DNA of 64,000 nucleotides from a virus. Each line of letters opens with the position of its first letter. Within the stretch, counting starts at the first letter, position 1. The translations under genes were made by a program, and so were the position numbers. Of this stretch, positions 1 through 21,340 are shown one piece after another. Location of the stretch: IMG/VR virus record IMGVR_UViG_3300035698_026482, positions 1-64,000 of that record; one strand, written 5' to 3'. The notes below the pieces were generated by a model, which saw only the letters and a list, made by a program, of their open reading frames with translations, searched no databases and was not told the origin of the DNA.

Positions 1-773
1 CCAACCGTGATAGAACCAGTCTGGCTTACACCGGCGGCGCCTTCATCGGTCCATAGACCGCCTCCACCTCCGCCAGATCCAGTTACGGCGTGAATTGTGA
101 CAGCACCGTTTGAGGCGCTGGTGATGCGTACATTGTCGCCAGCGACGAAAGCGGATGTGCCATCCACCAGGCGCGTATGTGAGCCAGAGAAGCCTAATGA
201 GGCAGATATAAAGCCATCGATGCCAGCGTCGCCGCCAACCGTGATAGATCCCGTTTGACTGACACCGGCGGCGCCTTCATCGGTCCACAAATTTGCATCG
301 CCAGTGTCGACAAAGACGCCAGTTACGGCATGGATTGTGACAGCGCCATTACTGGCGCTGGTGATACGCACATTGTCGCCCGCGACAAACGCAGACGTAC
401 CATCAATGAGGCGTGTAAGTGAACCAGAAAAGCCGAGCGAGGCAGATACAAAGCCGGCGATGCCCGCATCGCCACCGATCGTGATAGAACCCGTTTGACT
501 GACGCCTTGTGTGCCCTCATCAGTCCACAAGCTAGCATCGCCAGGATCAGTGCCTGTGACAGCATGAAATGTCACAGCCCCATTACTTTCGCTGGTAATG
601 CGTATATTATCGCCAGCAACGAATGCAGATGTGCCGTCGGCTAGGCGCGTGTGTGAACCGCTAAATCCAAGGCTTGCAGTGACTACACCTGAAATGTGAA
701 CAGACGCATCTGTTCCTACGACAGTGAATGCCTTGAAACCGAAGTCACTGTTATATTTGATGATAATCGCCAC
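1..773 (-). CDS. Gly/Ser/Thr-rich repeat protein, probable tail fibre or virion protein (runs off window end)
   Basis: Open minus-strand frame from GTG at 773 to the window edge (MAIIIKYNSDFGFKAFTVVGTDASVHISG...). It contains three 78-80 aa repeats: SASLGFSGSxTRLxDGTSAFVAGDNVRITSASNGAVTIHAVTG...LWTDEGAAGVSQTGSITVGG. It is absent from the ORF track because it has no stop in the window. Confidence 0.7.
   Translation of the reverse strand, partial: MAIIIKYNSDFGFKAFTVVGTDASVHISGVVTASLGFSGSHTRLADGTSAFVAGDNIRITSESNGAVTFHAVTGTDPGDASLWTDEGTQGVSQTGSITIGGDAGIAGFVSASLGFSGSLTRLIDGTSAFVAGDNVRITSASNGAVTIHAVTGVFVDTGDANLWTDEGAAGVSQTGSITVGGDAGIDGFISASLGFSGSHTRLVDGTSAFVAGDNVRITSASNGAVTIHAVTGSGGGGGGLWTDEGAAGVSQTGSITV
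7..690. repeat. Three imperfect in-frame tandem repeats (periods 234 and 240 bp)
   Basis: The gtgataga...tgactgac(a/g)cc block recurs at 7, 241 and 481. Confidence 0.9.
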
Positions 774-839
774 GGACCACCCTAACTATTGTGGGCGGCG
801 CTGGCGGTGCCATTTGCTATTCTATTTTAAGTGCTATTC

Positions 840-1034
840 TTATATTTTTGCGCTGCTAAAGACGACGTTGCCGCTTGGGACAGTGAATTTATTAGTTGCC
901 TTAATCAACCAGAGACCTATATGAAAATCGATAGGGGCAGAAACATGAAATTTATATATGTCTGCGATGTGGACGTTGCTGCGTATGAACCACAGCGTAG
1001 ACATATATCGTTTCGGATGTTGAGATTGCTTCAT
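840..1034 (-). CDS. Microprotein, FxS[AC] family (array C)
   Basis: 64 aa; RYMSTLWF near the N-terminus; ends VFSSAKI*. Confidence 0.75.
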   Translation of the reverse strand: MKQSQHPKRYMSTLWFIRSNVHIADIYKFHVSAPIDFHIGLWLIKATNKFTVPSGNVVFSSAKI

Positions 1035-1035
1035 G

Positions 1036-1221
1036 TCATATACTCATGGTATTCGATGAACCAATAGCCGCACTAGAAAAGTGTAGTTGCGCGCCCTGAG
1101 CTCGCCTAGACGCAATAATCCACTTCGCGAAAGTAGCGGTATCATCAGCGATGCTCAGTACGTCCCCGGCGTACTTGCCTAGGCGCCCCATCAACCACAT
1201 GTCATTATAAACAGTCATCAT
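1036..1221 (-). CDS. Microprotein, FxS[AC] family (array C)
   Basis: 61 aa from MMTVYNDMW; ends HFSSAAIGSSNTMSI*. Confidence 0.75.
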   Translation of the reverse strand: MMTVYNDMWLMGRLGKYAGDVLSIADDTATFAKWIIASRRAQGAQLHFSSAAIGSSNTMSI

Positions 1222-1243
1222 GTTCCCATTGTTTATCGACAGG

Positions 1244-1414
1244 TCACTTCGCCCTATTTTTAATGACGGCGCTGACAAAAATAAGCTTCATATGTCCTTC
1301 GATGTGATATCGATGAAGCAACCATCTTACCATTGAATATGCGGAATCGGCATCACAAAATAGAATTCTTGTTTCTGCGCAGATCCATGTAGTATTATAG
1401 CGGATGCGGTGCAT
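1244..1414 (-). CDS. Microprotein, FxS[AC] family (array C)
   Basis: 56 aa from MHRIRYNTTW; ends IFVSAVIKNRAK*. Confidence 0.75.
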   Translation of the reverse strand: MHRIRYNTTWICAETRILFCDADSAYSMVRWLLHRYHIEGHMKLIFVSAVIKNRAK

Positions 1415-1419
1415 TTTTA

Positions 1420-1605
1420 TTAAGGCAATAATGTTGCAAGCGAACAGGATGAAAAGCAACATAACTGTGGATCAACGGACGTTGAATAACTTATGAAGAA
1501 TGCAATTGTTGTAGCATCATCGCTACATGTTATTAGTTTGCAATAATCTGAACTACAGTTTTGTTGTGATGCATTAAACCACATAACGCTATTATAAATT
1601 GTCAT
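1420..1605 (-). CDS. Microprotein, FxS[AC] family (array C)
   Basis: 61 aa from MTIYNSVMW; ends CFSSCSLATLLP*; ATGA overlap with the upstream gene. Confidence 0.75.
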   Translation of the reverse strand: MTIYNSVMWFNASQQNCSSDYCKLITCSDDATTIAFFISYSTSVDPQLCCFSSCSLATLLP

Positions 1606-1778
1606 ATTGACGAACGTCTTCGTAACGGACAGGACGAAAAATAGTACCGATAGCTGTTCTTTACGCCCGGTCTCTTCAAAAACTTTACAAGGGTGTGAGA
1701 ATCATCGTAATCGTATATTATCCCAACGCCTTTATTGACGTTCGTATAAAGCCACATGATATTATCGTAAGATGTCAT
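1602..1778 (-). CDS. Microprotein, FxS[AC] family (array C; below ORF-track cutoff)
   Basis: 58 aa, translated by hand: MTSYDNIMWLYTNVNKGVGIIYDYDDSHTLVKFLKRPGVKNSYRYYFSSCPLRRRSSI*. Confidence 0.75.
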   Translation of the reverse strand: MTSYDNIMWLYTNVNKGVGIIYDYDDSHTLVKFLKRPGVKNSYRYYFSSCPLRRRSSI

Positions 1779-1953
1779 AACATATTACTATTGCTGGTAC
1801 GACAGCCGACACAAAGTAATAAGAACAATCATGAGGGCCTGCCAATTGTTTCGGTGTACTATGATCATTGCGAACGTAAGGCCATGCCGGGGCCGGCCCA
1901 CTGTAATTGTAATACTCATTATCAATGAACCATTGAGTTTTGTACATGACCAT
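1762..1953 (-). CDS. Microprotein, FxS[AC] family (array C)
   Basis: 63 aa from MVMYKTQWF; contains YFVSAVV near the C-terminus. Confidence 0.75.
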   Translation of the reverse strand: MVMYKTQWFIDNEYYNYSGPAPAWPYVRNDHSTPKQLAGPHDCSYYFVSAVVPAIVICYDILR

Positions 1954-1957
1954 AATG

Positions 1958-2113
1958 CTAGAGTTTTGCAGAAATAAATGCATAAAGAGACGATGTAAAC
2001 CCAAGCCATTCAGCCATCTCGCAAGGCAAGTCTTCATCATATATTATAATACATTTATCGGGTTCTTGCGAATCATAGACTCGATGTGCGAACCATTGCG
2101 TTTTGTACTTCAT
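1958..2113 (-). CDS. Microprotein, FxS[AC] family (array C)
   Basis: 51 aa from MKYKTQWF; ends AFISAKL*; ATGA overlap. Confidence 0.75.
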   Translation of the reverse strand: MKYKTQWFAHRVYDSQEPDKCIIIYDEDLPCEMAEWLGFTSSLYAFISAKL

Positions 2114-2283
2114 TGACTTACAATTGTTGCAGACACGAACCATGGCCTACGTTGACCTGTGAGTTGATATGCGTATGTTACCATGACAGCAGCCTCTACG
2201 TTAATTGTCCAGCTGCTGGACGAGCGATGCACGTCGGGCGGAAAGCTAGGTGGGCGAAGGTATTGAATGCGATACGTTTTCAT
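2110..2283 (-). CDS. Microprotein, FxS[AC] family (array C; below ORF-track cutoff)
   Basis: 57 aa, translated by hand: MKTYRIQYLRPPSFPPDVHRSSSSWTINVEAAVMVTYAYQLTGQRRPWFVSATIVSQ*. Confidence 0.75.
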   Translation of the reverse strand: MKTYRIQYLRPPSFPPDVHRSSSSWTINVEAAVMVTYAYQLTGQRRPWFVSATIVSQ

Positions 2284-2285
2284 GT

Positions 2286-2489
2286 TCAACGCTGCGTGAT
2301 CTGATGTATTGGCGCTGAAGAGAATTCAAGATGTGTCGATGAGCCTGTCCTGTAACTGCAGCTCACATAGTAATATAGTAACAGTGAACTTTTACCTGGC
2401 CAAACGTTAGTGGCCCATGTTTTCTTTGCCATACGTTCGTTCCCAGGGCACGAAGACAAAATATCATATATGTGAATATCTCTATTCAT
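2286..2489 (-). CDS. Microprotein, FxS[AC] family (array C)
   Basis: 67 aa from MNRDIHIY, overlapping the endonuclease stop; ends EFSSAPIHQITQR*. Confidence 0.7.
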   Translation of the reverse strand: MNRDIHIYDILSSCPGNERMAKKTWATNVWPGKSSLLLYYYVSCSYRTGSSTHLEFSSAPIHQITQR

Positions 2490-3525
2490 ACACGCCTGCT
2501 TTGAGCTCGCCGATGAAGTGAACACCGGGTGTGGGATTCGAGATGATGTCGTAGAGTTTACCCACGCATTCGCCCCTGAATCTACCGCGCTGCAGCCATT
2601 GATCGTATGAAATGCGAATTAGGCAATACCCTAACCGTGGTAATGTCACGTTTAGTTCATGATCTTTTAATTGATTCTTTTCTAGCTTTTGATTTTTGAA
2701 TATGGCTTTAAAATGATGTTGGCCGTCATATTCAATAACAATTTTTAATTGTTCGCTACAAATGTCAAAATAGCGACGTTGTGAACTGACTGATTTAAAC
2801 GATGCATGCTTTTTTCGCACATTAAGCCGAAAATCAGCCGCATCAATTAGCGCATTAACTAAACGATGCAATTCAATTTGAGGTTTTGATGTATGCACAC
2901 CCGTTTTCTGCATTGCATCAATGCATTTAGCAAATTCTTCTGGATTCTCTTCACGCCAACGCTTAAGATTCGTCGACCGTTGAGCTTGAATTTCTGGCCG
3001 CATTGATGTAATTTTTGCGACCCTAGAACTACGTTGGCGCGCTGTATCAGTTTGGTTAAGTTCACCTAACAATTTGGATCGGCGATCTCGTTCGTCGGGA
3101 TTCGACATAATCGCATCAGATACTGTCTGACCCATCTTTACGCGATATTCTGTTAAATCATCGCCATTTGCTTTGGCTCGATTAATCCAGTCGCTATTAT
3201 ATTTGTTTTGTTCGCTGTATCGCTCTGTAGTTGCAGCACACTTTATTGGACCATAGGCTTCAATATACTCATCTTTTGCAAGTCCATGTTCACGTTTAAC
3301 ATGCGCTGTCAGGCTTTTTGCGGCGAGATTACAAATTGCGCAGCGCACAAAATCAACGCCTTCAATGCGTCCCTTGAACTTGCATTTCGGTTCATGCGTC
3401 CTTAGCGCGCCTAGGACGTTGTATTGCTTTCCGCAATGCTGACAACATCCAGGTCTTGACGGACGATCTTCCTGATCGGAAGCATTTGTCCGCATGTCGT
3501 TCTGAACTTGTGATTCGGTGTGCAT
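2482..3525 (-). CDS. Zinc-finger plus Vsr/DUF559-like putative homing endonuclease
   Basis: N-terminal CxxC..H zinc fingers; C-terminal FDI...KIVIEYDGQHHF...GYCLIRISY. Follows an IntN-bearing dnaE fragment. The start may be ATG 3495. Confidence 0.75.
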   Translation of the reverse strand: MHTESQVQNDMRTNASDQEDRPSRPGCCQHCGKQYNVLGALRTHEPKCKFKGRIEGVDFVRCAICNLAAKSLTAHVKREHGLAKDEYIEAYGPIKCAATTERYSEQNKYNSDWINRAKANGDDLTEYRVKMGQTVSDAIMSNPDERDRRSKLLGELNQTDTARQRSSRVAKITSMRPEIQAQRSTNLKRWREENPEEFAKCIDAMQKTGVHTSKPQIELHRLVNALIDAADFRLNVRKKHASFKSVSSQRRYFDICSEQLKIVIEYDGQHHFKAIFKNQKLEKNQLKDHELNVTLPRLGYCLIRISYDQWLQRGRFRGECVGKLYDIISNPTPGVHFIGELKAGVYE

Positions 3526-4103
3526 TCTATCGTGCTCCCATCGTCGAAGGTGTATTTGATAACCTCGAGTGTGCCATGGTCATGTAATGCCTTGACCTCA
3601 ACAAAGATATCTTTGCCTGTTGTTTCATCTCGTGACCGAACATATTCACCGGCATTCATATCAATTATACTACGGGTTGCAACGTATGTACCACTAGAGT
3701 CATATGTATTTATACGCGCAGAAGCCGTGACCGACCGATTGAAGCCGTAGCCACTAAAAAACTGCATCTTATCCCAGAGCTCTTCGACCTGATGATCTGT
3801 AAGCCCCATTTCCATTGCGCCCTTCTTAAATTCAGCCTTGATTCGAAAGCCTTCTGCGGCCTTTTTAGAGTTAACGTCAGTACCAATCGATTTCTTCACG
3901 AGAATACTGCGAAGTCTATCGCAATCGTCCCAACTAAGCCCAAACTCCTTTCCGATAAGCATAAAACTTTCCTGGAAGCAGTTGTGAACAACAATGTCGT
4001 TTGCAATGAAATTCGAATTATTTTTAATTGTTAAATCGTAAACACGTTGTGGCGCTTTCAATTTTTTGATTGATGAAAGTCGTAATGTCTTTGTTTTTTG
4101 CAT
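3411..4103 (-). CDS. dnaE: DNA polymerase III alpha fragment 4: IntC (3981-4103), 82-aa DnaE extein, IntN (3411-3734)
   Basis: VYDLTIKNNSNFIANDIVVHN|CFQESFML (the DnaE YQEQ region) ... FSGYGFNR|SVTASARI...IECTPNHKFRT (intein block B). Confidence 0.88.
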   Translation of the reverse strand: MQKTKTLRLSSIKKLKAPQRVYDLTIKNNSNFIANDIVVHNCFQESFMLIGKEFGLSWDDCDRLRSILVKKSIGTDVNSKKAAEGFRIKAEFKKGAMEMGLTDHQVEELWDKMQFFSGYGFNRSVTASARINTYDSSGTYVATRSIIDMNAGEYVRSRDETTGKDIFVEVKALHDHGTLEVIKYTFDDGSTIECTPNHKFRTTCGQMLPIRKIVRQDLDVVSIAESNTTS

Positions 4104-4959
4104 ATGTTTTAAGTTCCGTTAAGAAGTGCTGCGATTCAGAATGCCAAACTCTTATAATATTGAATCCGCAATTTATTGCATGTGTCGTGTATCGCCTATC
4201 AATGTGATATTGTGCTTTCATGCGAGGAGATAATGCGTATAATTTCGGGTTGCCGTGCCAATAGTCTCCATCGAACTCAATAATCAAATTAAACTCAGGT
4301 ATAAAAATATCGTATTGGTGTCCACACGCATCGATCATATACCCTTGCTTGACTGTAAAATCAGTAAACTTCTCTAGAGCTCCGACAAATTCACATTCTG
4401 CAATAGAAACGCTCTCTTGTTTTTTCCTGGTCGCAGCGGCTGCTTTCGCAATTTGGCTATATTCTTCACGCTTTTTAGTATTGCAATGAATTCGCGTTTT
4501 GTGAACCTTGAGTCCTCGGGCGCTATATGTTTTTTTTGTATCGCATAGCTCGCATACCGTGCGAGGCTTATTATTATCAGTCGATGAGCAGTACGACTTA
4601 TGGGCTTTAAGCGATGTGTTTTTCGAAAAAACCTGTTGGCATTTACCACATTTGAACTCGCCAAATTTTACAACATTTTTGTACTGCTTCGATTCATTTT
4701 GATTTGCTATCCATGCGTCTGTTAATTTCCTGCCTGCGTACCTGGCACTGAGGCCCTTATCTCTACATTCGTATGAGCAATATTTTGCGCTTTCGCGACC
4801 CGCTTTAAATTGCTCATTACAAACGGGGCAATTAAAATCATTTTTCTTTTTTGTTTGATTTATGCCTCGTAATTTAGCTCCGCAGGCGGTCGAGCACGTT
4901 TTATTTCTGCGCGATGAAAATAGGCTGTTACAAATTGGGCAATGCTCTTGGAGTATCAT
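4024..4959 (-). CDS. Zinc-finger plus Vsr/DUF559-like putative homing endonuclease
   Basis: CSxxC and C2H2 motifs; YDIFIPEFNLIIEFDGDYWHG...GFNIIRVW. Lies between the two halves of a split intein. Confidence 0.8.
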   Translation of the reverse strand: MILQEHCPICNSLFSSRRNKTCSTACGAKLRGINQTKKKNDFNCPVCNEQFKAGRESAKYCSYECRDKGLSARYAGRKLTDAWIANQNESKQYKNVVKFGEFKCGKCQQVFSKNTSLKAHKSYCSSTDNNKPRTVCELCDTKKTYSARGLKVHKTRIHCNTKKREEYSQIAKAAAATRKKQESVSIAECEFVGALEKFTDFTVKQGYMIDACGHQYDIFIPEFNLIIEFDGDYWHGNPKLYALSPRMKAQYHIDRRYTTHAINCGFNIIRVWHSESQHFLTELKTYAKNKDITTFINQKIESATTCLRFNN

Positions 4960-5615
4960 GTGCCGATAAGTATATGTTCGGTTGTTAATGCCCTAGCCTC
5001 AATCCACCCAATGGTAGTGAGAATAGGATGATCTTCTGTGCATTTCAATGTGCGACCATCATCAAAGCACAATTCAATTACATTTTTTAGTCCATTATCA
5101 TGCCATCCAATAATCGTATCACATTCGAACGAGCTTAATTCTGTGTTATAAGATAAAACTTCGTAAGGCTTTCTTGACTCAACCAGATCGCTAATTTTCT
5201 TTTTTTCCCCAGATGCAAGTGTCACAAAAGTATCACCAGTGATACACATATGTCCATACGTGTCACCAAGCACCTTTTCGATTGCCGGGTGAATATACTC
5301 TAGCTTTTCGCCGGCCTCAACTCTTTCCTTATCAGTGACGTAGGCCTTGTCAACGCCTGCGCTTAGCGGTCCTGGACGATAAATCGAAGATAGAGCAGCA
5401 AGATCGACAATCGAGCGAGGCTTAGCTTTTTGCATGAGATTTTGCATGCCTCTCTCTGTCGCCTGAAACACTGCGGCCCATTTACCATCATGAAAGACGT
5501 TTTCATACACACGCTGATCATTAAGATCGCAAGATTCGGCGTCTAGATTTTCATTGAACCACGCCTTGATATCCGTAAACTCAGGCACAATCTTTTTTGT
5601 AATCTTGGGCTTCAT
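4956..5615 (-). CDS. dnaE: DNA polymerase III alpha fragment 3: DnaE extein plus IntN (4956-5246)
   Basis: VFQ...DLAALSSIYRPGPL...LGDTYGHM|CITGDTFVTLASG...LKCTEDHPILT. Confidence 0.9.
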   Translation of the reverse strand: MKPKITKKIVPEFTDIKAWFNENLDAESCDLNDQRVYENVFHDGKWAAVFQATERGMQNLMQKAKPRSIVDLAALSSIYRPGPLSAGVDKAYVTDKERVEAGEKLEYIHPAIEKVLGDTYGHMCITGDTFVTLASGEKKKISDLVESRKPYEVLSYNTELSSFECDTIIGWHDNGLKNVIELCFDDGRTLKCTEDHPILTTIGWIEARALTTEHILIGT

Positions 5616-5624
5616 ATATCTATT

Positions 5625-7247
5625 TTACATCTGGTTGTCATAAATGTACGCCAGATTATGCATTCCCCATATCTTAACAACACCATTGACTTCGGCAACC
5701 TGTGCTTCTGTTAACCCACCCGGTTTATCTGCACGATATTTGAATCGATTAAATCGTTGTGAAAAGTCTGTCCACCAAAATCGAAGTTGCGGTCTTAAAT
5801 CGACCTTCGCGAATCCTGATTTCTCGTATCCAATGCCAGATCCGCCTAGACGTGTGTCAACATACGTTATAAGTGATCCGTGTGATTTGCAGCGTGATAA
5901 AAGCTTGCTCATGCCGCCGACGACCTGCGTGTTAAGTTGAAATGCTATTCTGGCGACTTCTGTGTAGTTTTTCCACTTTTTGTGAAATGGTCTTCTCAAT
6001 GTGGCGGCGCCAACGAGCTGGTCTTCGCAATATAGTCCATATGCATGTGAACAAGGTGTAGATCCGCCTATATGTGTTTCATTCAAAAATGCATGAGCGA
6101 GCTTATTTTCGATCTTTTTTATTGTGCAATGACGAGCGTAAATTCGTTTAGAATTTCCTAAGCGATGCGCGATCATCGATTTAATGATGGGTTGCTTAAA
6201 TTTCCATTCATCTTCGAAAATCTGAAATAGGCTCACATGCTTTTCTTTGCATGCTTTCCATTTTTGAATGTGAGCGTCTTGGTCAATTCGCAATTCATTA
6301 TGCCAATAAAGTCCATGACATTCAATTGCAAACTGTTTTGATTCGACCCATATATCAAGTTCTTTGGGCGATATAACTGTTCGATCATCAAGCACGGCGT
6401 TGTGCGTCAAGCAAACGTAATCATAAACGTCTCGTTGCCATTTACTGCTTGGTGTACATTTCGGACATGCATCGTCAGTGAATAATGCAGATAATGCTCG
6501 CTTCATTTGTGCATTGCAATTACGACATTTGATGTCAACACGCTGTGTTACACAGTTATATTGACGAACTATTTCATTGCTGTCAAACTCGAATAGTTCG
6601 TATGCTGATGCTAAACGCTCTAGGATAACGCCTTCATTCAGCTTTCTTTTTTCGCTTATTTTTTGTTTGATCTCATCAGCATTTTTGCCATGCGTCCAAT
6701 GAGATCCAGATAAAAGCGTCTTACTAATTGCTTTGCCCAATGTTACAAGGCCATCATGTGTACTTTTATCATGACCAGCATGCCATTGTGTTCTTTTACC
6801 GCTAGCGAATTTTTGCTTCATCGATATTGAGCGTTTAATTGCTGCAAGGGCAATATTTTCATGCGTTTCCTTTGTGCGTCCAGCGTTCCAATGACCACCG
6901 CGTTCAACAATATTCTTTTTTATCGCTTTTGATATTTTTGCGACGCTGACATTGTTATCTTTTGTAAGCCCCGCATTCCACGCTGGCTTATAATTTTTCT
7001 TACGTGAAATAGCGGCTTTTTCTGCGCCCCATATTTTTGAACAAGGCAGACAATATGGCTGGTAGCCCTTTTGCAACGTTACAAATTTAGTGGCTGTCTT
7101 ACATTTGCCGCATGAGCCCATATCGGGAAATAACGCATCATAAACATTTTGTGATGTTAGACCATGTGCTCGAGAAGCGTGAATCCGCAATGAATTGTAT
7201 GATTTACAATTCTTTCCACAGTCCGGGCACTTCAACAATGTCGTCAT
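5625..7247 (-). CDS. Putative homing endonuclease (C2H2 finger, WNxG repeats, Vsr-like nuclease, C-terminal GNAT-like domain)
   Basis: DRTVISPKELDIWV...FAIECHGLYWH; IYARHC; EVARIAF...VVGGMSKLL. Confidence 0.75.
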   Translation of the reverse strand: MTTLLKCPDCGKNCKSYNSLRIHASRAHGLTSQNVYDALFPDMGSCGKCKTATKFVTLQKGYQPYCLPCSKIWGAEKAAISRKKNYKPAWNAGLTKDNNVSVAKISKAIKKNIVERGGHWNAGRTKETHENIALAAIKRSISMKQKFASGKRTQWHAGHDKSTHDGLVTLGKAISKTLLSGSHWTHGKNADEIKQKISEKRKLNEGVILERLASAYELFEFDSNEIVRQYNCVTQRVDIKCRNCNAQMKRALSALFTDDACPKCTPSSKWQRDVYDYVCLTHNAVLDDRTVISPKELDIWVESKQFAIECHGLYWHNELRIDQDAHIQKWKACKEKHVSLFQIFEDEWKFKQPIIKSMIAHRLGNSKRIYARHCTIKKIENKLAHAFLNETHIGGSTPCSHAYGLYCEDQLVGAATLRRPFHKKWKNYTEVARIAFQLNTQVVGGMSKLLSRCKSHGSLITYVDTRLGGSGIGYEKSGFAKVDLRPQLRFWWTDFSQRFNRFKYRADKPGGLTEAQVAEVNGVVKIWGMHNLAYIYDNQM

Positions 7248-7968
7248 TTTCAGTTAGCTCCTTCACAGACTTTGTAGTGCCATCAGATAGATTCACCACT
7301 GAATTACCTAACAGGTTGAATGTTTGTTCGCCTAGTTTAATTTCAAACATGTCGCCTTCCTTTTTCCATTTGCGTCTAAGAATCAGGTCGATTGCACGAT
7401 CAATTACGCGTAATGTCTTAAGACCCAAAAGGTCGAATTTGATCCAACCAAATTTCTCAAGGTGCCTATAGTGCAGCCCCTCTGTCCAGGGAGTTTGAAT
7501 CTCGCCGCGAATTTTAATAACAGGCATTCTTGCTTGAATGTTCTCCGATACAATAACACCACCTGCATGACGACCGATCGCCTTATTTTGCTTGAACAGA
7601 ACCTTGATGTGTTCACCAACTTGCGGATACTTTTCGATATATTCTCGGAAGCCCTTTGAATGCGCCATGGCATCATCAAAGCGTAGCACGAAAACGTTCT
7701 TGTCATCGCCCTTCTTTTGCGTTGCCCGCATGACCTCACGCTCAACACCCTTGGTCGCTTGGTTCGTCTCGGAGAAATCAATGCCATAAAACTTTGAAAT
7801 ATCCTTTACCAGCGACTTCAGTTGTAGTGTATTATAGTTAGAAATCGGCACAACGTTTTCAGTGCCAAATTTATCACGAAGCAAGTGCTTTAATTTGTCA
7901 TTATCGGCAACATCGGAATTATGCGATGCTATTGACAACCCTTGTTTCAAAAAAGAATGACGAATCAT
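7204..7968 (-). CDS. dnaE: DNA polymerase III alpha fragment 2: 17-aa IntC plus DnaE palm region
   Basis: MIRHSFLKQGLSIASHN|SDVAD...GRHAGGVIV...KFDLLGLKTL. The start at 7968 is supported by a consensus promoter immediately upstream; the ORF track starts at 8007. Confidence 0.88.
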   Translation of the reverse strand: MIRHSFLKQGLSIASHNSDVADNDKLKHLLRDKFGTENVVPISNYNTLQLKSLVKDISKFYGIDFSETNQATKGVEREVMRATQKKGDDKNVFVLRFDDAMAHSKGFREYIEKYPQVGEHIKVLFKQNKAIGRHAGGVIVSENIQARMPVIKIRGEIQTPWTEGLHYRHLEKFGWIKFDLLGLKTLRVIDRAIDLILRRKWKKEGDMFEIKLGEQTFNLLGNSVVNLSDGTTKSVKELTENDDIVEVPGLWKEL

Positions 7969-9576
7969 ATGAGTATTATACATCACGATAACTTCATTTG
8001 TCAACATTGCGATTATAGCTCGGCGTCAGCACGAGGATTTGCGCAACATAATAAGAAAAAGCATAATATCGAAAGTGAATCATTGTTTTGCAATGTATAT
8101 GAAACACACGCCCAATTACACAAATGCGCCGGATGCAATGCCCAATCGAAATTTGTCGGTTTTACGCATGGATACGAGCAGATTTGTGGGAAGTGCAAAA
8201 GAAAAAAAGCTTTCGAAAAATTGACGCCGTGGAACAAGGGTTTAACAAAATCAACTAGTGGAAAGGTTAAAAAAGCTGCGGCGTCAATGCGTAAGCATTA
8301 CGATAAAAATAAGCACTGGTCGAAGGGTCTAAAAAAAGAAACATCAAGCATTATTGCATCGCGAAGTCATGCTGTATCGAAATCATTAAAAAAATATTAT
8401 GATGAGAACGAACATTGGTCAACGGGACTAACAAAACATACGCATACAGGGATTGCAAAGAGAAGCATTACAAACGCCGCCGTGCAAAAAGGGAAAAAGT
8501 TTTCCAAAGCGCATAAGCTTAAGCTTTCTAATGCGAAAATACTAAGCGAAAAAATTGTCGACTATCGGTTGCATGAGCATGGATTCAATCGATTAGCAGC
8601 GTATGAACATTCGCAAAAGAAGTTGCTTGTCGAGTGCATCAAATGCGAAACGCAATTTGAAAAAACATACGGCAACATTATAAACAGCGGTGGACGATGC
8701 ACAATATGTGACCCAGCATATCAAAACCAATCGTCGAAATGGCAAACAGAAATCTACGATTTCATTATTTCACAGTTCTCGGGTGATGTTATTTTAAACG
8801 ATCGTACATTATTGGGCGGTTATGAATTGGACATTTTTATCCCTTCGCTTAATTTCGCCATTGAATGTCATGGAATATATTGGCATAGCGAAGCAGCGGG
8901 AAGGTTTGATAAAAACTATCATCAAATGAAGTATCAACTTGCTCGTGAACATGGCGTTGAATTATTTCAAATTTATGAGGACGAATGGACTCAAAAAAGT
9001 GAACTTATTAAGGCGATGATTCTGCATCGACTAGGTCATAGCACGCATGTATATGCAAGAAAGCTTAATTTGCAAATCGATACGCCAAACAAAAAAGACG
9101 TTGATGATTTTATTAACAGCAATCATCTAGATGGCTCAACACGATGTCGTCATAGAATTGTACTCAGTGATGCTAATGATGAAATCTTCGGGGCCTTGAC
9201 GTTACGAAAAATCAGCTGGGGCAAATTTAAGGGTGAATTTGAAATTGCGCGCATGTGTTTCAAGCGCGGAACCAAGGTCATTGGCGGAAGCGCGCGCTTG
9301 ATCGCACACGCCAAACATCTACTTCCTGGGGACAAACTTATAACGTATGCTGATAATCGCCTTGGCGGACGGCATCATTGCTATAAAAGTAATGGCTTCG
9401 TATATTCACATTCGACGACGCCTCGATGGTGGTGGACAAATCTTACTGATCGGATGGATCGATTTCATGTTCGTGCAGATAAGGCACGTGGGCTATCAGA
9501 AAATGAAAACGCCGCATTACACGGCGTTGTCAGGATTTATGGATGTAGCAACGAATGTTACATTTATAATCCTTAG
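7969..9576 (+). CDS. Putative homing endonuclease (same family as 5625-7247), antisense to dnaE
   Basis: CQHC..H finger; PWNKGLTK repeats; DRTLLGGYELDIFIP...FAIECHGIYWHS; YARKL; EIARMCF. ATG 7969 is back-to-back with ATG 7968; ATG 7957 is an alternative start. Confidence 0.75.
   Translation: MSIIHHDNFICQHCDYSSASARGFAQHNKKKHNIESESLFCNVYETHAQLHKCAGCNAQSKFVGFTHGYEQICGKCKRKKAFEKLTPWNKGLTKSTSGKVKKAAASMRKHYDKNKHWSKGLKKETSSIIASRSHAVSKSLKKYYDENEHWSTGLTKHTHTGIAKRSITNAAVQKGKKFSKAHKLKLSNAKILSEKIVDYRLHEHGFNRLAAYEHSQKKLLVECIKCETQFEKTYGNIINSGGRCTICDPAYQNQSSKWQTEIYDFIISQFSGDVILNDRTLLGGYELDIFIPSLNFAIECHGIYWHSEAAGRFDKNYHQMKYQLAREHGVELFQIYEDEWTQKSELIKAMILHRLGHSTHVYARKLNLQIDTPNKKDVDDFINSNHLDGSTRCRHRIVLSDANDEIFGALTLRKISWGKFKGEFEIARMCFKRGTKVIGGSARLIAHAKHLLPGDKLITYADNRLGGRHHCYKSNGFVYSHSTTPRWWWTNLTDRMDRFHVRADKARGLSENENAALHGVVRIYGCSNECYIYNP
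7975..8004 (-). promoter_or_regulatory. Consensus sigma70 promoter for dnaE fragment 2 (probably leaderless mRNA)
   Basis: Minus strand TTGACA-N18-TATAAT, followed by 6 nt and then ATG at 7968. Confidence 0.75.
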
Positions 9577-11894
9577 TTTTTCATATACCCAAGCGTATGT
9601 TCAATCGTGTTTGAATCATCGTATTCAATTACATCGAATGGTACAACGTTGAATGTATGTGATCCCTCAACTGAGATGTCGACAAATTCTGTTTCTGTAT
9701 CTAGTGTGTCGACGGACACAACTCTTGCATTACCCTGCATTGATTTTAAATCAATGCCTGCTGCCAGATCTTTCGCAAAAACAACATTATTATCGATATC
9801 TAAAAAACGATGCTTTTCAACGCAAGCAATGCCTCCAAGACATCCATTAAGCTCAATTGTAATCAGTAGCGGCACATCGGTTTTATTTTCCCTAAGCTGA
9901 ACATGCGTAACGCATCTGGGAGTACCATCGGCGTCAAGCACCTCATCACCCTTACCAATGTCACCGATCGGGCTGTATGACCCGTCAGCCATCACAACCA
10001 TATGGTTACTTGCAATACAATCAATATCGGGATATGACGAACGTGCCAGAGAGATAAACCTAGCGAACAACAAATTGTACTTAATAGGATCTACATGTGT
10101 GATGTATAACACGTAACACAATAGTGATCCTGCCGCGGAATTATGAACTGCTTTTCCTTCAATGTTATAAGTGTGTGAAGGCTCAACACATAAGTCAATA
10201 ACCTTGCCTTGATAAGGCCTAATTGTTCTTTTTATTAGTTTGCTATCATCGTGTTTGGCGACGCCAACAACATCATCTAAATCTGTTAGATTTTGTGCCT
10301 CGACCCATCCTCGATTTGACGTTAAAAATTCATGATCAAGTGTACACGTAATTGTTTTACCATCATCGAATTCAAGATCAATTACATCCTCATTGATATC
10401 ATAAGTAAAAACATCAGTGACTTGTCCGATATTGTCATATGCATCAATGACGTCTTCGCCTATTGTAATTGTATCAAGGCGTTTAGGTCCATCAGACGTA
10501 AGCACATTTGATTCAGGAACAAAACACCCTCTACCGGGGCCCACCAGCATATTTTCGTTGGCAAGCTCCATGATTGACTTCATTGTCAAAAAGTAGAGCG
10601 AGAAGTTCTTTTGCTTAATAACCTCAAGTTCTTCCTCTATGCGAGCAACATATTCCGGCTTATCTGCCAGTCCGCGTTTGGTCAGTCCCTCATACGCTGC
10701 GCTTGTAAGTGCTTCATGTTCGCCTTGACCCTTTGGAACAACATACGATGGAAGCTTCACAGAGACGTTTGGACTCGTGTCACCAATCATATCATGGGCA
10801 ATATCATAAGTGCGCTCGATTGCATCAGCAACCAGCTGATCGTCGTAAAAGCTAAGCGACATCTTAGCATTGCGCCCCCTAAGCATGCGCTTTCCGTCCT
10901 TATACGCACCCCACATCTGCTCTGCATTTTTTGGATATAGCTCGCACTCAAGCTCGTCGATAGACTGGGGCAATGCTCCAGGTTCAAATTTATCTTTGCT
11001 TACCCATCCCAGCTTTTTATACATCTCACGATCCTTCCACAGATGTGGTCCAGGATAATGCGAGTCTGCAGTTGCAATGAGCGGCAATTGCGTTCTTTTG
11101 GCTAACTCAATCAAGTGCATGTTGACGAGGTGTTGCGGGCCTAACTTATTGAACTGTAGCTCAAGAAAGAAGTTCTCGCGACCGACTGCGTGCACAATAC
11201 TATCAGTCGTATTCGCCAGATCACGCTGGATTGCTTCAAATGTCTTTTGATCACCTACGCCAGGAACCATTTGATCCCATGTCAAATGCTGGTGGTGTCG
11301 CATTACGTCGTAACTTAGCGGACCTGCCAAACATGCAGAATTTACCACCAGACCCTCTGAGTGTAACTTTAGCAGCTTATAGTCAATTCTTGGGAATCTG
11401 TAGAACCCGTCGCTGTAGCTTTTTGAGACCAATGCGAAAAGATTTTCTAATCCCTTTTGTGACTTGGCAACAACAACAAGATGATGACGACGTCGAACAG
11501 GATCATACCACTTCGTCTGTTTTGATTCTTCCTCATTTTCGATAACGCTGCCGGCATCGTCGTCTGATACCTCTACGAGTCCTCGCTTGTTTTTTGCTTT
11601 TCGTTCGCGGGAAGCGTCATATTCGATTTTCCACTGCGTCAAGTCAGGATGAACATAAAACTCTACTCCTGGTATGAATTTAAACGCGCGGCCGAGCTTA
11701 TCCAATTCCCATTGATGGGATTGCGCATGTGAATATGAATTCATATGGCCGTGATCAGTTATGGCCATTGCGTTCATGCCATTTTCTAAAGCAAAATCAA
11801 AATGCTCTTTGGGATATCCAAGGCCATCATAGGTGCTAAAACCGGAATGTCCATGAAGTCCGACAAATCGTTTTGGCGGTCTTACAATGGACAC
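9573..11894 (-). CDS. dnaE: DNA polymerase III alpha fragment 1: PHP domain, cis mini-intein (10140-10526), IntN (9573-10019)
   Basis: FVGLHGHSGFSTYDG, AITDHG, ATADSHY; GPGRG|CFVPES...VHN|SAAGSL; YPDID|CIASNH... Confidence 0.95.
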   Translation of the reverse strand: MSIVRPPKRFVGLHGHSGFSTYDGLGYPKEHFDFALENGMNAMAITDHGHMNSYSHAQSHQWELDKLGRAFKFIPGVEFYVHPDLTQWKIEYDASRERKAKNKRGLVEVSDDDAGSVIENEEESKQTKWYDPVRRRHHLVVVAKSQKGLENLFALVSKSYSDGFYRFPRIDYKLLKLHSEGLVVNSACLAGPLSYDVMRHHQHLTWDQMVPGVGDQKTFEAIQRDLANTTDSIVHAVGRENFFLELQFNKLGPQHLVNMHLIELAKRTQLPLIATADSHYPGPHLWKDREMYKKLGWVSKDKFEPGALPQSIDELECELYPKNAEQMWGAYKDGKRMLRGRNAKMSLSFYDDQLVADAIERTYDIAHDMIGDTSPNVSVKLPSYVVPKGQGEHEALTSAAYEGLTKRGLADKPEYVARIEEELEVIKQKNFSLYFLTMKSIMELANENMLVGPGRGCFVPESNVLTSDGPKRLDTITIGEDVIDAYDNIGQVTDVFTYDINEDVIDLEFDDGKTITCTLDHEFLTSNRGWVEAQNLTDLDDVVGVAKHDDSKLIKRTIRPYQGKVIDLCVEPSHTYNIEGKAVHNSAAGSLLCYVLYITHVDPIKYNLLFARFISLARSSYPDIDCIASNHMVVMADGSYSPIGDIGKGDEVLDADGTPRCVTHVQLRENKTDVPLLITIELNGCLGGIACVEKHRFLDIDNNVVFAKDLAAGIDLKSMQGNARVVSVDTLDTETEFVDISVEGSHTFNVVPFDVIEYDDSNTIEHTLGYMKN

Positions 11895-11930
11895 TCTGGC
11901 GCCTCCTTCTTTTTGCTTAATTTGTTCATA

Positions 11931-12227
11931 TTAGTTCAATTTGCCTTGTTGAAATGCATTAACCCACGCGTAAATTGTCGGGGCATGGCAGCCAAATTCT
12001 TTTGCTAGCGTCGTTGCCGATTCACCAGCGAGTTTTCGTGTAGCCGCAACGACTTTCATATCATTCGTAAATTTTCGTTTTTGTTTAGACCTAGGAACAA
12101 GATCTGCGACCCACTTATGAACTACGGTCGGATTAACGTTTAAAATTTCGCCAACCTTATATGTGCTGTGATGCAGCTCATATAATATTCTCGCTGCTTT
12201 TTTGGTTCGGGCAGTATGACGCCTCAT
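11931..12227 (-). CDS. Tandem helix-turn-helix protein (IS3 OrfA-like HTH repeats), probable regulator
   Basis: KVGEILNVNPTVVHKWV and TLAKEFGCHAPTIYAWV. Confidence 0.7.
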   Translation of the reverse strand: MRRHTARTKKAARILYELHHSTYKVGEILNVNPTVVHKWVADLVPRSKQKRKFTNDMKVVAATRKLAGESATTLAKEFGCHAPTIYAWVNAFQQGKLN

Positions 12228-12409
12228 AATGTCTTATTATACATCACCCTTCGTGAGGAGAACACGCTTTTATTGCGAATCCTTTTTTTGTCTCCGTAAA
12301 GATCACGAGTCCAGCGACGCCAAGACCGGGCAAATTCATATGTCCACGCGGAAGAAAACCCGTACAGCCTGTGCTCTTGCAAAAAATTGTCTGCGGGCAG
12401 GATCCTCAT
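12224..12409 (-). CDS. FSSR-motif microprotein (array A)
   Basis: 61 aa from MRILPADNFL; ends VFSSRRVMYNKTL*; ATGA overlaps at both ends. Confidence 0.8.
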   Translation of the reverse strand: MRILPADNFLQEHRLYGFSSAWTYEFARSWRRWTRDLYGDKKRIRNKSVFSSRRVMYNKTL

Positions 12410-12601
12410 CTGCTTATCCTACGTGAGGAGAACACATGGCTTGTACCCTCGTGGGTTGGATCACCGTAATAATCATTCGTCTTCCAGGCCCATACAAGTT
12501 GACGATCGGGGGGGGAGGTAGCCTCGACGGTGGTTTACTGCCCTGCTGCTATCAATATAAAGGATAAGGTCGCCTAGGAACCATTTCATTGCACGTGTCA
12601 T
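12406..12601 (-). pseudogene. FSSR-motif microprotein frameshifted at a C8 run (array A)
   Basis: Removing one G from G8 at 12508-12515 gives MTRAMKWFLGDLIL...HVFSSRRISR*, with an ATGA overlap into 12409. Confidence 0.75.
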
Positions 12602-12762
12602 GCGCTCACCTTTCGTGAAGACCATTGATTGACTTGATGGGCCGGGGTCGAGCCCATTGTTTTCATCGTCGTGCTCATCCAATAACGTTGCGCTTGATTA
12701 CCCATATAGTTTAAGAGATACATGTCATCACATCGCCATGGCAATTTTTCAACAACCCACAT
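12598..12762 (-). CDS. FSSR-motif microprotein, WSSRK variant (array A)
   Basis: 54 aa from MWVVEKLPWRCDDMYLL; ends QWSSRKVSA*. Confidence 0.8.
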   Translation of the reverse strand: MWVVEKLPWRCDDMYLLNYMGNQAQRYWMSTTMKTMGSTPAHQVNQWSSRKVSA

Positions 12763-12968
12763 TAGCTGCTCACCTTGCGTGATGAGAACATCATGCTGGC
12801 GTAGCTGCAGATCCATGAATAGGGTGAACAAAATGACTCACGCGACCAACCAAGATCCTCTGGGGACGAGCTCGGCTCATCATTTTTTGTGCACCAAGTA
12901 TATGCTTGCGGCTTGAAAAAATCGTCACGAAGCAACTGATCGTATCCGTTCAGCCAAGTTGTTTTCAT
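12762..12968 (-). CDS. FSSR-motif microprotein (array A)
   Basis: 68 aa from MKTTWLNGYDQLL; ends MFSSRKVSS*. Confidence 0.8.
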   Translation of the reverse strand: MKTTWLNGYDQLLRDDFFKPQAYTWCTKNDEPSSSPEDLGWSRESFCSPYSWICSYASMMFSSRKVSS

Positions 12969-13129
12969 ACATTTACCTTGCGTGAAGACCATTGATAGGC
13001 CCGATGGGCCGGGGTCGAGCCCATTGTTTTCAGCACGTTGCTCATCCAATAACGTTGTATTTCATTGCCCATATTACGCAAAAGATACATGTCATCAGGT
13101 CGCCTCGGAAATCCCACAACGGCCCACAT
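12965..13129 (-). CDS. FSSR-motif microprotein, WSSRK variant (array A); paralog of 12598-12762
   Basis: 54 aa from MWAVVGFPRRPDDMYLL; ends QWSSRKVNV*. Confidence 0.8.
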   Translation of the reverse strand: MWAVVGFPRRPDDMYLLRNMGNEIQRYWMSNVLKTMGSTPAHRAYQWSSRKVNV

Positions 13130-13416
13130 TAGTTGGCCACCTTCCGCGATGAGAATATTGAAATACAAAAGGCGCCGCCCGGCATGCCTCTATCAACGCA
13201 ATAAGGCATGCCGCCGCCGGCGTGTTTGGATGAGGCTGTTTCATATTTTGATGCCTTGCATGTATATCTTAAATTCGTGATTATGTAAGAACCGCCCATG
13301 CGATTCTCATGATACTGGAAATATGAATCGTCTACTGCAATGCATGCATATAGATCAGGCCAATGAACATACGGCCAATGTTTTATTTGCCTTGGCGCTG
13401 GATTTACGACCTTCAT
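13129..13416 (-). CDS. FSSR-motif microprotein (array A)
   Basis: 95 aa; ends IFSSRKVAN*; TAATG overlap. Confidence 0.8.
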   Translation of the reverse strand: MKVVNPAPRQIKHWPYVHWPDLYACIAVDDSYFQYHENRMGGSYIITNLRYTCKASKYETASSKHAGGGMPYCVDRGMPGGAFCISIFSSRKVAN

Positions 13417-13637
13417 CTATTCACCCTGCGGCTTGAAAATATAAGCGCCTCTATATGCCCATCATGTAGTGGCGCCGTGTATGTGCATTTATCGTTAAAC
13501 TGCCATCCGCATTGCTTTGCAGTCTGTGTTTTATTATCGAAGTCCCATATACACGCTTGCTGACTTGACAGATGAATTGGTATGTCTAGTGAATAGGGCC
13601 ACCCGCGCAAGAGAATATCACCCGATAACAGTTTCAT
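13413..13637 (-). CDS. FSSR-motif microprotein (array A)
   Basis: 74 aa from MKLLSGDILL; ends IFSSRRVNR*. Confidence 0.8.
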   Translation of the reverse strand: MKLLSGDILLRGWPYSLDIPIHLSSQQACIWDFDNKTQTAKQCGWQFNDKCTYTAPLHDGHIEALIFSSRRVNR

Positions 13638-13837
13638 GTGCTCACCTTCCTGGACGAGAAGATAAGATATTTGTGATACTGTAATCTGTACGCTGCTGCT
13701 TTCGTCGAAGCCGCTTTTGCCTGGGTGGGACTCATTTTTCCTACATCAATATAGTATGCGCGGCGACGGCGGCGGCTGTATATCCACTTGTCATATTGCC
13801 ATTTTTCAATTAGCGCATCCTGAATTTTGTATTTCAT
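13634..13837 (-). CDS. FSSR-motif microprotein (array A)
   Basis: 67 aa from MKYKIQDALI; ends IFSSRKVST*. Confidence 0.8.
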   Translation of the reverse strand: MKYKIQDALIEKWQYDKWIYSRRRRRAYYIDVGKMSPTQAKAASTKAAAYRLQYHKYLIFSSRKVST

Positions 13838-14073: not shown

Positions 14074-14117
14074 TCAAACATTTTCAATACCATGTGATCG
14101 TCTAGCTTGAGTTTCAT
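13977..14117 (-). CDS. FSSR-motif microprotein (array A; below ORF-track cutoff)
   Basis: 46 aa: MKLKLDDHMVLKMFEMYHILTPGSLDATNYHPYGRMIIFSSRKVNV*. Confidence 0.8.
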   Translation of the reverse strand: MKLKLDDHMVLKMFEMYHILTPGSLDATNYHPYGRMIIFSSRKVNV

Positions 14118-20310: not shown

Positions 20311-20311
20311 T

Positions 20312-21316: not shown

Positions 21317-21340
21317 GCTATGTCTAAATATAGCATGGCA
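21311..21340 (-). promoter_or_regulatory. Hairpin sequestering the endonuclease start codon, with an ATATTTAG motif at the loop
   Basis: Perfect 10-bp inverted repeat TGCCATGCTA-N10-TAGCATGGCA; the 3' arm contains ATG 21316. Confidence 0.7.

Follow-up and report, generated by a model that had tools for sequence, protein, structure and literature searches.

How could a phage make a DNA polymerase from a gene that is broken repeatedly, with inteins at most of the breaks and a gene for an endonuclease in each? This is the question raised by the dnaE locus at positions 2482-11894 of the DNA studied here (the window), which is the first 64 kb of the linear, 182,840-bp IMG/VR record IMGVR_UViG_3300035698_026482, with a CheckV completeness of 53%. 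The original prediction for this locus described a DnaE polymerase fractured into at least five genes, with one cis intein, three split inteins acting in as many trans-splicing events, and four interleaved endonucleases. The order of these parts is borne out by the open reading frames (ORFs), by Pfam matches and by the alignment of the junctions. Four of the genes are present (frag1 to frag4), but the fifth (frag5) is absent from the 182,840-bp record, and while split pairs A and B are complete, the third, C, has only its N-terminal intein part (IntN-C) and its endonuclease. The earlier observation is in this sense partly confirmed and its interpretation partly supported. We consider it likely that we are dealing with a multiply 'fractured' phage dnaE, in which a single polymerase gene has accumulated mobile units, each made up of an intein and a free-standing homing-endonuclease gene of its own. 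The multiply fractured reading made in the prediction is upheld by the relatives L134 and L108/L109, which carry the same breaks and the same endonuclease lineages.

Polymerase pieces and their junctions

The four ORFs (Table 1) are collinear and together account for positions 1-760 of the 1022 positions of the DnaE model TIGR00594, with frag1 matching 1-363 and 361-403, frag2 412-599, frag3 577-675 and frag4 678-760. By Pfam, frag1 contains PHP (E 3.1e-28) and DNA_pol3_alpha (E 3.5e-26), frag2 again DNA_pol3_alpha (E 8.9e-16) and frag3 DNA_pol3_finger (E 3.3e-22), with intein models matching frag1, frag3 and frag4. The PHP domain, the palm with its catalytic Asp and the fingers are all found by Pfam and NCBIfam, and the polymerase motifs PDID, GRHAGG, FDLLGL and the HGHSGFS of PHP are intact, the frag2 extein containing GRHAGGV and FDLLGL. 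As intact references we used seven IMG/VR relatives (L004-L010) with an uninterrupted DnaE frame of 1193-1215 residues, whose identity is 45-48% to frag1, 54-62% to frag2, 45-55% to frag3 and 26-34% to frag4. The collinear matches are not a matter of chance: in tblastn searches against intact relatives, the pieces have E-values between 1e-8 and 1e-143. Translation of frag1 begins at a GTG, with a ribosome-binding site, GAAGGAGG, upstream.

The junctions were read by adding the fragments singly to an alignment of the seven intact relatives, i.e. by the alignment of exteins to intact DnaE that the original prediction had named as a check, and in it they proved exact. Namely, the cis site reads GRG/C...129 aa...HN/SAAG (the slash marking the splice junction) where intact relatives have GRG SGAG. 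Junction A reads PDID/C... and ...SHN/SDV against PDID SDV, and junction B reads TYGHM/C... and ...VVHN/CFQE against TYG CIIFQE, at equal length. At junction C, YGFNR/SVTAS... corresponds to YGFNKSHA, the N side alone being present in the record. All four motifs that had been predicted (GRG/SAAG, PDID/SD, TYGHM/CFQE and YGFNR/S) are correct by this alignment, and the junctions are exact at three of the four breaks between the ORFs present. An intact dnaE elsewhere, which would have made the fragments redundant, was also looked for: neither a second nor an intact copy lies in the record, that is, in about 53% of the genome. A family-B polymerase was likewise not found in the record, which does hold a PolA-like gene (34733-36010; a 426-residue ORF whose family-A polymerase domain has E 7.3e-16, above the cut-off).

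Table 1. Positions in the window of the DnaE pieces, their intein parts and the interleaved endonucleases
Feature	Position	Strand	Length (aa)	Description
frag1	9573-11894	-	773	PHP and N-terminal palm, cis mini-intein, 40 extein residues ending PDID, IntN-A
cis mini-intein	10140-10526	-	129	frag1 residues 457-585
IntN-A	9576-10019	-	148	directly after catalytic PDID
HEa	7942-9576	+	544	antisense, free-standing; length from TTG, in-frame ATGs at 7957 and 7969
frag2	7204-8007	-	267	from first ATG; IntC-A, palm/thumb extein (residues 31-216), 51-residue tail
IntC-A	7918-8007	-		within frag2 residues 1-30; ends SIASHN/SD
frag2 tail	7207-7359	-	51	frag2 residues 217-267; absent from the 7 intact relatives
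HEb	5625-7247	-	540	Hef-like, EDxHD; at the intein-less break
frag3	4956-5615	-	219	basic head, DnaE fingers extein to TYGHM (residue 123), IntN-B
IntN-B	4959-5246	-	96	Cys1; block B TEDH
HEc	4024-4959	-	311	C2H2 zinc fingers and nuclease core IIEFDGDYWHGN ... RVW.SE
frag4	3411-4103	-	230	IntC-B, 82-residue extein (3735-3980, CFQE...YGFNR), IntN-C
IntC-B	3981-4103	-	41	ends VVHN/C
IntN-C	3414-3734	-	107	Ser1; block B TPNH
HEd	2482-3525	-	347	Ros/MucR-like zinc finger and DUF559-like core (QVDI...VEFDG..HF...IRISYDQ)
	1-2481	-		expected place of IntC-C and DnaE C-terminal part; small ORFs and repeat protein running off the contig start

Cis and split inteins

The cis mini-intein predicted in frag1 is confirmed as complete: it has Cys1, block B TLDH, block F VIDLCVEPSHTYNI, a VHN end and a Ser at position +1. 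At the same GRG/S site, L134 and L108 have an allelic intein that is split, and the cis mini-intein is 52% identical to the split allele of L134 in its N part and 68% in its C part. Judged by these sequences, the GRG/S allele, contiguous here and split in L134 and L108, is a natural cis/trans pair. The two halves in L134 (5497-5769 and 5857-5961) lie some 85 nucleotides apart, with no endonuclease between them.

The split intein at PDID is divided in an uncommon way. IntN-A, with Cys1, blocks A and B and a block-F-like stretch FVDISVEGSHTFNV, spans the whole of the cis mini-intein except block G, and its partner is correspondingly short. IntC-A probably starts at Met14 of frag2 (ATG 7966-7968), which gives 17 residues, MIRHSFLKQGLSIASHN, and the PDID intein would then be split after block F, leaving an IntC of about 17 residues. 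Short partners of this kind recur: in 17 of the 23 relatives in alignment A2, the IntC is 16-25 residues long from the called start to HN/[ST]D, with the consensus M..HSF....SVVVHN (of the others, one is truncated and five carry an IntC of the conventional kind, whose site lies seven residues upstream), and in the short IntC family H29 and N30 are kept at 90% or more of 24 sequences. Just upstream of the likely start, at 7975-8004 on the minus strand, stands TTGACA-18 nt-TATAAT, the sole 12-of-12 sigma-70 match in 2300-12300; because it ends 6 nt before the ATG of Met14, a near-leaderless frag2 transcript is possible. Overall, the region has no more promoter-like sites than expected by chance, and this promoter is not visibly conserved in L098 and L134, the two loci in which it could be checked.

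Pair B is an ordinary split pair, with TIGR01445 and TIGR01443 both above their cut-offs. As for IntN-C, its position 1 in 17 aligned family members is Ser in eight, Cys in seven and Thr in two, and since it is always one of these three, it has the pattern expected of a working nucleophile; what is more, the 19 columns that are invariant in alignment A1 are all preserved in IntN-C. Taken together, all four intein N parts of the locus have the block-B His, position 1 is Cys in the cis mini-intein, IntN-A and IntN-B and Ser in IntN-C, and the C-terminal Asn with its +1 residue reads VHN/S (cis), SHN/S (A) and VHN/C (B). For pair C the corresponding residues are known from relatives, where IntC-C has TSN/S in 15 of the 15 loci in which frag5 was read, LTSN/SH being highly conserved.

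Several split inteins acting on one protein would need to be mutually orthogonal, as the original prediction pointed out. The non-allelic intein halves here are 25-40% identical in local alignments that are partial (with one pair at 50%, over just 32 residues), whereas the allelic inteins of L134 are 36-68% identical to those of the window. The net charges of the IntN parts run from -3 to -18 and those of the IntC parts from 0 to +6. From the divergence, orthogonality of the pairs is plausible.

A break without an intein

No functional splicing element lies where the exteins of frag2 and frag3 meet, and because this break has no intein, two polypeptides and not one would be left after splicing. 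Both edges of the break carry extra residues. The 51-residue tail of frag2 has a net charge of -7, lacks Cys1 and has its TxxH replaced; frag3 opens with a head, MKPKITKKI(V), of 9-10 residues and net charge +4, which, like the tail, is absent from the seven intact relatives. In a comparison of profiles by hhalign, the tail aligns to IntN from block B to the end with a probability of 95.3% and E 2.4e-8. A reading by eye of the tail as the start of an intein (block A) was dropped, as hhalign places it on the block-B-to-end half of IntN. Pfam finds nothing in 12 tails, the best match being Hint_2 at E 0.084 in one of them.

The arrangement is widespread. At E <= 1e-3 there are 140 frag2-like proteins, many of them encoded on contigs of 100-320 kb; the break is kept in many phages, some of which have an endonuclease between the two halves and some not; the tail is conserved in relatives with this break, and a start of the frag3 type is common to the metagenome proteins of alignment A1. 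All 12 tails are net-negative and nine of 11 heads net-positive, following the acid/base charge pattern described for the interfaces of split inteins (Dassa et al. 2009, PMC2677866). Most likely, the tail is the relic of a split intein that is dead for splicing and that would have been kept as a docking clasp.

Interleaved endonucleases

The four interleaved endonuclease-like ORFs that had been predicted, the antisense one included, are confirmed: there is one such ORF at each of the four breaks, with one nuclease core common to all four. HEa is Hef-like, with an EDxHD core and a GNAT/Mom-like C-terminal domain, and its 5' end overlaps that of frag2 head to head, an antisense layout also seen in L134, L166 and L167. 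HEa and HEb are paralogous (34% identity) and match the 'homing endonuclease' family phrog_3339 over the full length (E 1.6e-65 and 1.6e-58), and relatives of HEb occur in 410 phage records, some of them annotated as Hef59 or Hef-like. The joint HEa/HEb profile (A5) matches the I-Bth0305I domain 3r3p with E 5.4e-6, positions 291-365 lying on chain residues 19-94, and also a GCN5-type acetyltransferase fold with E 4.3e-6, phrog_1384 accounting for the GNAT/Mom-like domain. The Vsr-like character ascribed earlier to the endonucleases holds in this way for HEa and HEb. The profiles of HEc (A4) and HEd (A3), on the other hand, match neither 3r3p nor Vsr at E <= 10, and are linked to the family by profile-profile comparison alone, the nuclease-core links by hhalign being 96.9% for A5-A4, 93.7% for A4-A3 and 75% for A5-A3. 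The DUF559 match of HEd (E 0.0033) is below the cut-off, and phmmer of HEd and HEb against the PDB returned only zinc-finger and weak GNAT matches. The tandem C2H2 fingers of the HEc family match human ZNF568-type fingers in the PDB (E 8.4e-16); they are an unusual DNA-binding module for a phage endonuclease.

Each of the three endonuclease genes on the strand of dnaE begins, in another frame, within the ORF before it or at its end. The ATG of HEb lies within the ENDDI codons of the frag2 tail, in another frame and with an overlap of 44 nt, and the start of HEc overlaps the stop of frag3 (ATGA). The ATG of HEd falls, again in another frame, within block B of IntN-C, with an overlap of 115 nt (viewed at 3411-3525 of the window and 15400-15520 of L134), in which gaATGCac is read as E-C in the frame of the intein and as M-H in that of the endonuclease; the N-terminus MH.ESQVQN is kept in 12 aligned homologues of HEd, with Q6 invariant and H2 at 90% or more. 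Because of this embedding, the most conserved codons of the intein and the N-terminus of the endonuclease are mutually constrained. An out-of-frame endonuclease in a dnaX intein is reportedly the subject of a 2026 bioRxiv title (10.64898/2026.09.14.751524).

Homologues of HEc are found at the same break in eight other loci and homologues of HEd (28-42% identity) after IntN-C in 14 loci; each endonuclease lineage recurs at its own break in other phages. Indirectly, this recurrence suggests that the proteins may act as homing enzymes that cut empty alleles.

The locus among its relatives

No close relative of this locus exists among cultured or deposited phages: megablast of 2482-11894 against 50,697 phage records gave no match, and tblastn of frag4 against the same records just four weak ones, at 27-34% identity. 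Small contigs in four salt-lake metagenome runs, one of which may represent the sample of origin, match the window with 0-1 differences; they are 150-485 nt long, with a depth of 2-5 and no joints.

Fractured dnaE genes are found in numbers among uncultured phages, in two samples that were chosen in different ways. In IMG/VR, 161 loci with DnaE matches were fetched as the best matches of frag2 or frag4, which makes them a biased sample, and in the 122 of them that span the whole gene it lies in one ORF in 91 cases, in two in 23, in three and in four in 3 each, and in six or more in 2, these being BLAST-visible pieces and hence lower bounds. The break types s1 to s5 (s5 being the last split) also occur singly, in 6, 15, 15, 9 and 15 of the 161 loci. 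The second sample consists of 80 metagenome loci fetched for carrying s5. In the 27 that cover the whole gene it is in one piece once, in two pieces 11 times, in three 9 times, in four 5 times and in five once, i.e. 15 of these 27 loci, chosen for that break, have 3-5 pieces. Because of these piece counts and the recurring break types, one can say that the stacking of fractures recurs in uncultured large phages. The locus of the window is a strong example of it and not the most extreme one.

The same stack of breaks is found in L134, L108 and L109. In L134, which lies on a 309-kb contig, the polymerase is in eight pieces with six split inteins, frag5 included. In order, there are the split GRG intein, an ORF with SGAPDID as a micro-extein, an antisense homologue of HEa, the relic break with a homologue of HEb, an extra split at …IFQ/C, a split at TYS/C, a split at YGFNK/S with a homologue of HEd, and finally frag5, which begins MSNIKS…LTSN/SHAVAYAID. 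The micro-extein ORF (7239-7976 of L134, 245 residues) has SGAPDID, with the catalytic aspartates, as its sole extein, with an IntC and an IntN on either side; L134 had at one point been taken to lack the catalytic PDID, a reading dropped in view of this IntC/SGAPDID/IntN frame. Further split sites are seen in the DnaE fingers of relatives, at …VVHN/CGAQRF… and …IFQ/C… (P0018, P0020; L134 12516-14034), and because of these, many positions of dnaE can be said to be used by different inteins.

The missing fifth piece

In relatives, frag5 consists of IntC-C and about 300 C-terminal residues of DnaE and lies downstream of IntN-C in 15 of the 15 loci in which it was read, with a homologue of HEd between the two in 12 of the 15 (L015 has a HEb-like ORF instead). 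It was searched for here in several ways. In the 182,840-bp record there is nothing past position 760 of TIGR00594 at E <= 10 and no HHH_6 (PF14579); regular expressions for IntC-C, such as HN[SCT]H[ST] and similar ones, match nothing in the record; tblastn against it with the C-termini of the seven intact relatives finds no frag5, and with the frag5 proteins of L134 and L108 it reaches at best E 0.04, on the IntC of nrdJ. A permissive tblastn on 1-2600 of the window gives no frag5 (best E 1.1). An exact scan of metagenome contigs for the 39-nt 3' end of HEd has no match, and none of the 80 metagenome loci with a frag5-type gene has DNA near-identical to that of this genome (at best 85% over 59 nt). 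Since about 47% of the genome is outside the record, frag5 may lie elsewhere; outside dnaE, synteny with L134, L108, L126 and L151 is not strong enough for its place to be predicted.

In place of frag5, the stretch from 1 to 2481 contains small ORFs. Such arrays on the minus strand (840-2525, 12224-14140 and 51900-55232) mostly end in …FSS(R/A)(K/R)(V/L)…, because they share a repeated element of about 26 nt (family D5, TCTTCACGCAAGGT…ATGAAA on the coding strand, five copies), which takes in the stop of an ORF together with the ribosome-binding site and the start of the ORF that follows. At 1-785, also on the minus strand, an ORF with three repeats of about 80 residues (…SASLGFSGS.TRL.DGTSAFVAGDN.RITS.SNGAVT.HAVTG…), encoded by 240-nt DNA repeats with 80% identity, is cut off by the contig start; its product is probably structural or part of a fibre. 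The metagenome run X4 has loose ends at 1293 ('behind') and 3192 ('before'), one contig each, with 255 unmatched letters each; no joint is listed, and the equal loose ends might reflect a strain in which 1294-3191, with small ORFs and most of HEd, is replaced.

Proposed assembly and alternative explanations

In the assembly that we propose, frag1 would shed its mini-intein in cis after translation, joining GRG to SAAG. The acidic IntN-A, with blocks A, B and F, would capture the basic IntC-A of about 17 residues and ligate frag1 to frag2 within the active-site motif, frag3 and frag4 would be joined by IntN-B and IntC-B, and IntN-C would join the frag3-frag4 product to a fifth polypeptide, made of IntC-C and the HhH/OB C-terminal part, whose gene would be in the unassembled 47% or so of the genome or lost from the contig or strain. 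The N product (PHP, palm and thumb) and the C product (fingers onward) would remain separate chains, held together by the relic clasp of acidic frag2 tail and basic frag3 head. Given an identity between the intein pairs of only 25-40% over partial alignments, mis-pairing would probably be avoided. The endonucleases would take no part in the assembly, and would instead cut empty alleles and spread each unit. The chances seem to us evenly balanced for the most far-reaching form of this proposal, namely that a phage polymerase is built from at least five separate polypeptides (eight in L134) by mutually orthogonal, co-evolved split inteins in one cell, one of them with an IntC of about 17 residues cut after block F, that a dead relic serves as a non-covalent clasp, and that a contiguous and a split allele capture the transition from cis to trans.

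A number of points weigh against a stack of mobile units in a gene that still yields a polymerase. In every relative examined that has the break, frag5 is found some 0.1-2.5 kb past IntN-C, and it is absent from the present record; because of this, the third splice, and with it a complete polymerase, can only be presumed for this genome, and since the third pair is represented by IntN-C alone, only two complete split pairs are present. The PolA-like gene means that DnaE need not be the sole polymerase. No obvious ribosome-binding site precedes frag3 and frag4, block B of IntN-A is VEKH, with the His kept and the usual Thr replaced, IntC-A is unmatched by Pfam or TIGRFAM at E <= 0.01, and the four runs that match the window consist of low-depth DNA contigs. 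Some of these points could be taken to mean that dnaE is decaying in this genome, with its C-terminal piece lost, the fragments on their way to becoming pseudogenes, and the host polymerase or the PolA-like enzyme used. This we hold to be unlikely. While frag5 is indeed missing where 15 of 15 relatives with frag5 read have it, and the loose ends of X4 may mean that the stretch varies between strains, the four ORFs are open, the catalytic motifs, intein nucleophiles and block-B His are all kept, and IntN-C has not lost any of its 19 invariant columns. The absence of frag5 in itself says little, because the record is only about 53% complete, and in cyanobacteria the two halves of a split dnaE are known from separate loci (PMC2677866).

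One can also argue that the gap is one of assembly, i.e. that frag5 follows HEd directly, in the ordinary adjacent layout of L134, and that the contig is mis-joined near 2480 or represents a deletion variant there. The layout of every relative examined would lead one to expect this, the small-ORF array past HEd shares a repeated inter-cistronic element able to mislead assemblers, and none of the listed contigs from the four runs bridges 2473-2657; being so short, shallow and without joints, the run contigs do not inform the region around 2480. We nevertheless think it quite unlikely, since no alternative joint appears when these contigs are mapped to the window, pieces from four runs match both sides with 0-1 differences, and neither the scan with the HEd 3' end nor the frag5-type metagenome loci yielded a near-identical sequence. 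Finally, the split halves might no longer splice and only clamp, the polymerase being a non-covalent complex of at least five chains. The frag2/frag3 break of the same gene has gone that way, and the atypical block B of IntN-A and the sub-threshold match of IntC-A to family models would fit. We consider this very improbable, given that the three IntN parts, unlike the relic, keep the position-1 nucleophile and the block-B His, that both IntC parts keep HN and a +1 Ser or Cys, that the nucleophile of IntN-C varies only among Cys, Ser and Thr in 17 of 17 members, and that members of the short IntC family retain HN/[ST]D. It is therefore the multiply fractured dnaE, built up by mobile units, that we prefer as an explanation.

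Intein load of the record

The nrdJ gene (19336-24959) is fractured as well: a 1204-residue ORF with the ribonucleotide reductase barrel, an HNH-bearing cis intein and a terminal IntN of 103 residues is followed by a 345-residue ORF (with a weak TnsA-like match) and then by an ORF opening with an IntC of about 96 residues (…VCHN/TTN). The further split pair that had been predicted there is in place. On the whole the record is rich in inteins, with 13 places matching Pfam Intein_splicing at E <= 1, among them a DnaB-like helicase gene (24969-26990), a 1688-residue frame (84096-89159, four matches) and a 967-residue frame (89196-92096). More paralogues of HEa and HEb are encoded at 53271-54893 (-) and 55613-57439 (+), aligned at 34% identity, and judged by eye from C-terminal ends of the form (I/V)(Y/W)G(C/D).N..Y, similar proteins may be encoded at 73325-75124 (-) and 100752-102464 (-) of the record.

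Significance

If the pieces splice, an essential enzyme would tolerate three to six trans-splicing steps and one non-covalent joint, which would set a new upper bound on fragmentation by selfish elements. The loci would then supply sets of split inteins whose orthogonality in vivo must already be in place, while such sets are currently assembled by screening (PMC7090010). A natural IntC of about 17 residues, being in the size range of synthetic peptides, would be useful for semi-synthetic protein labelling. In addition, the relic clasp and the pair of cis and split alleles would be testable snapshots of the origin and decay of split inteins, a question raised in PMC2677866.

Comparison with known systems

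The last intein of the locus resembles the cyanobacterial DnaE intein. IntN-C matches the Npu/Ssp IntN structures 5ol7, 7qil, 4kl5 and 2keq (E 3e-12 to 3e-11), and frag4 matches the cyanobacterial DnaE-N model NF007079 through both extein and intein (positions 704-873 of 876, E 5.5e-16). Unlike its cyanobacterial counterpart, the phage family has Ser, Cys or Thr at position 1 and ends in SN/S, and an endonuclease gene follows IntN-C. The cyanobacterial split site lies a few residues upstream, at …Y/CFNKSHS as compared with YGFNK/SH. IntC-A calls to mind engineered split inteins with a very short IntC, the S11-type splits, e.g. of Ssp GyrB, in that the split falls just before the last strand or strands of the Hint fold and the IntC is a short peptide. 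Here, unlike in the S11 type, it is natural and found in 17 of 23 aligned relatives, and IntN-A repeats the H-x-F strand. To our knowledge, it is the IntN that is short in the natural atypical split inteins published so far, and not the IntC.

The intein-less break has a parallel in the nrdA-a/mobE/nrdA-b genes of phage Aeh1 (Crona et al. 2010, PMC3045599), where a free-standing endonuclease gene interrupts an essential gene, no splicing occurs, and assembly of an active enzyme depends on C- and N-terminal tails unique to the break. The extra tail (51 residues) and head (9-10 residues) are a common trait; in the present case, unlike in the Aeh1 NrdA described there, the tail is recognisable as the C-terminal half of an IntN (hhalign 95.3%). 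As to the endonucleases, Hef-type enzymes belong to the Vsr-like EDxHD family (Taylor et al. 2011, PMC3239194), and those of the window are, like I-Bth0305I and Hef, two-part proteins with an N-terminal DNA-binding region and a C-terminal nuclease. They differ from I-Bth0305I, as described in that paper, in that their N-terminal modules are C2H2 or Ros-type zinc fingers and that HEa and HEb add a GNAT/Mom-like domain.

In the literature that we searched, we found no natural gene reported to have three or more split inteins. A review of jumbo phages (PMC7824862) touches on a different, minimal split DNA polymerase III without inteins, and PMC6892783 describes one split PolB intein. The closest precedent is that of the fractured genes of Dassa et al. 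2009 (PMC2677866), in which adjacent halves with split-intein parts flank a free-standing Vsr-like or GIY-YIG endonuclease. These were phage-like genes of DNA metabolism, including DnaE (three loci) and NrdJ, on short GOS (Global Ocean Sampling) assemblies. Each DnaE locus had one split intein, DnaE-1 adding the C-part of one further intein, and an intein-less break, in an SbcD-like gene, had short inserted tails. As in those genes, the exteins here rebuild the host gene and an endonuclease-like ORF is found at each break. IntN and IntC stand at ORF ends in pairs A and B, while pair C has IntN-C alone and the frag2/frag3 break the relic. Unlike the loci as described there, the present one has an antisense endonuclease, an intein split after block F and a last half that is not adjacent in the record, and where their DnaE genes have the single split intein just mentioned, three split inteins are stacked here in one gene with a cis intein and an intein-less break, and L134 has six split inteins. 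Fractured genes, in other words, are already known and, in the literature that we found, have been described with a single split intein per gene, and the stacked version takes this known arrangement further than those cases.

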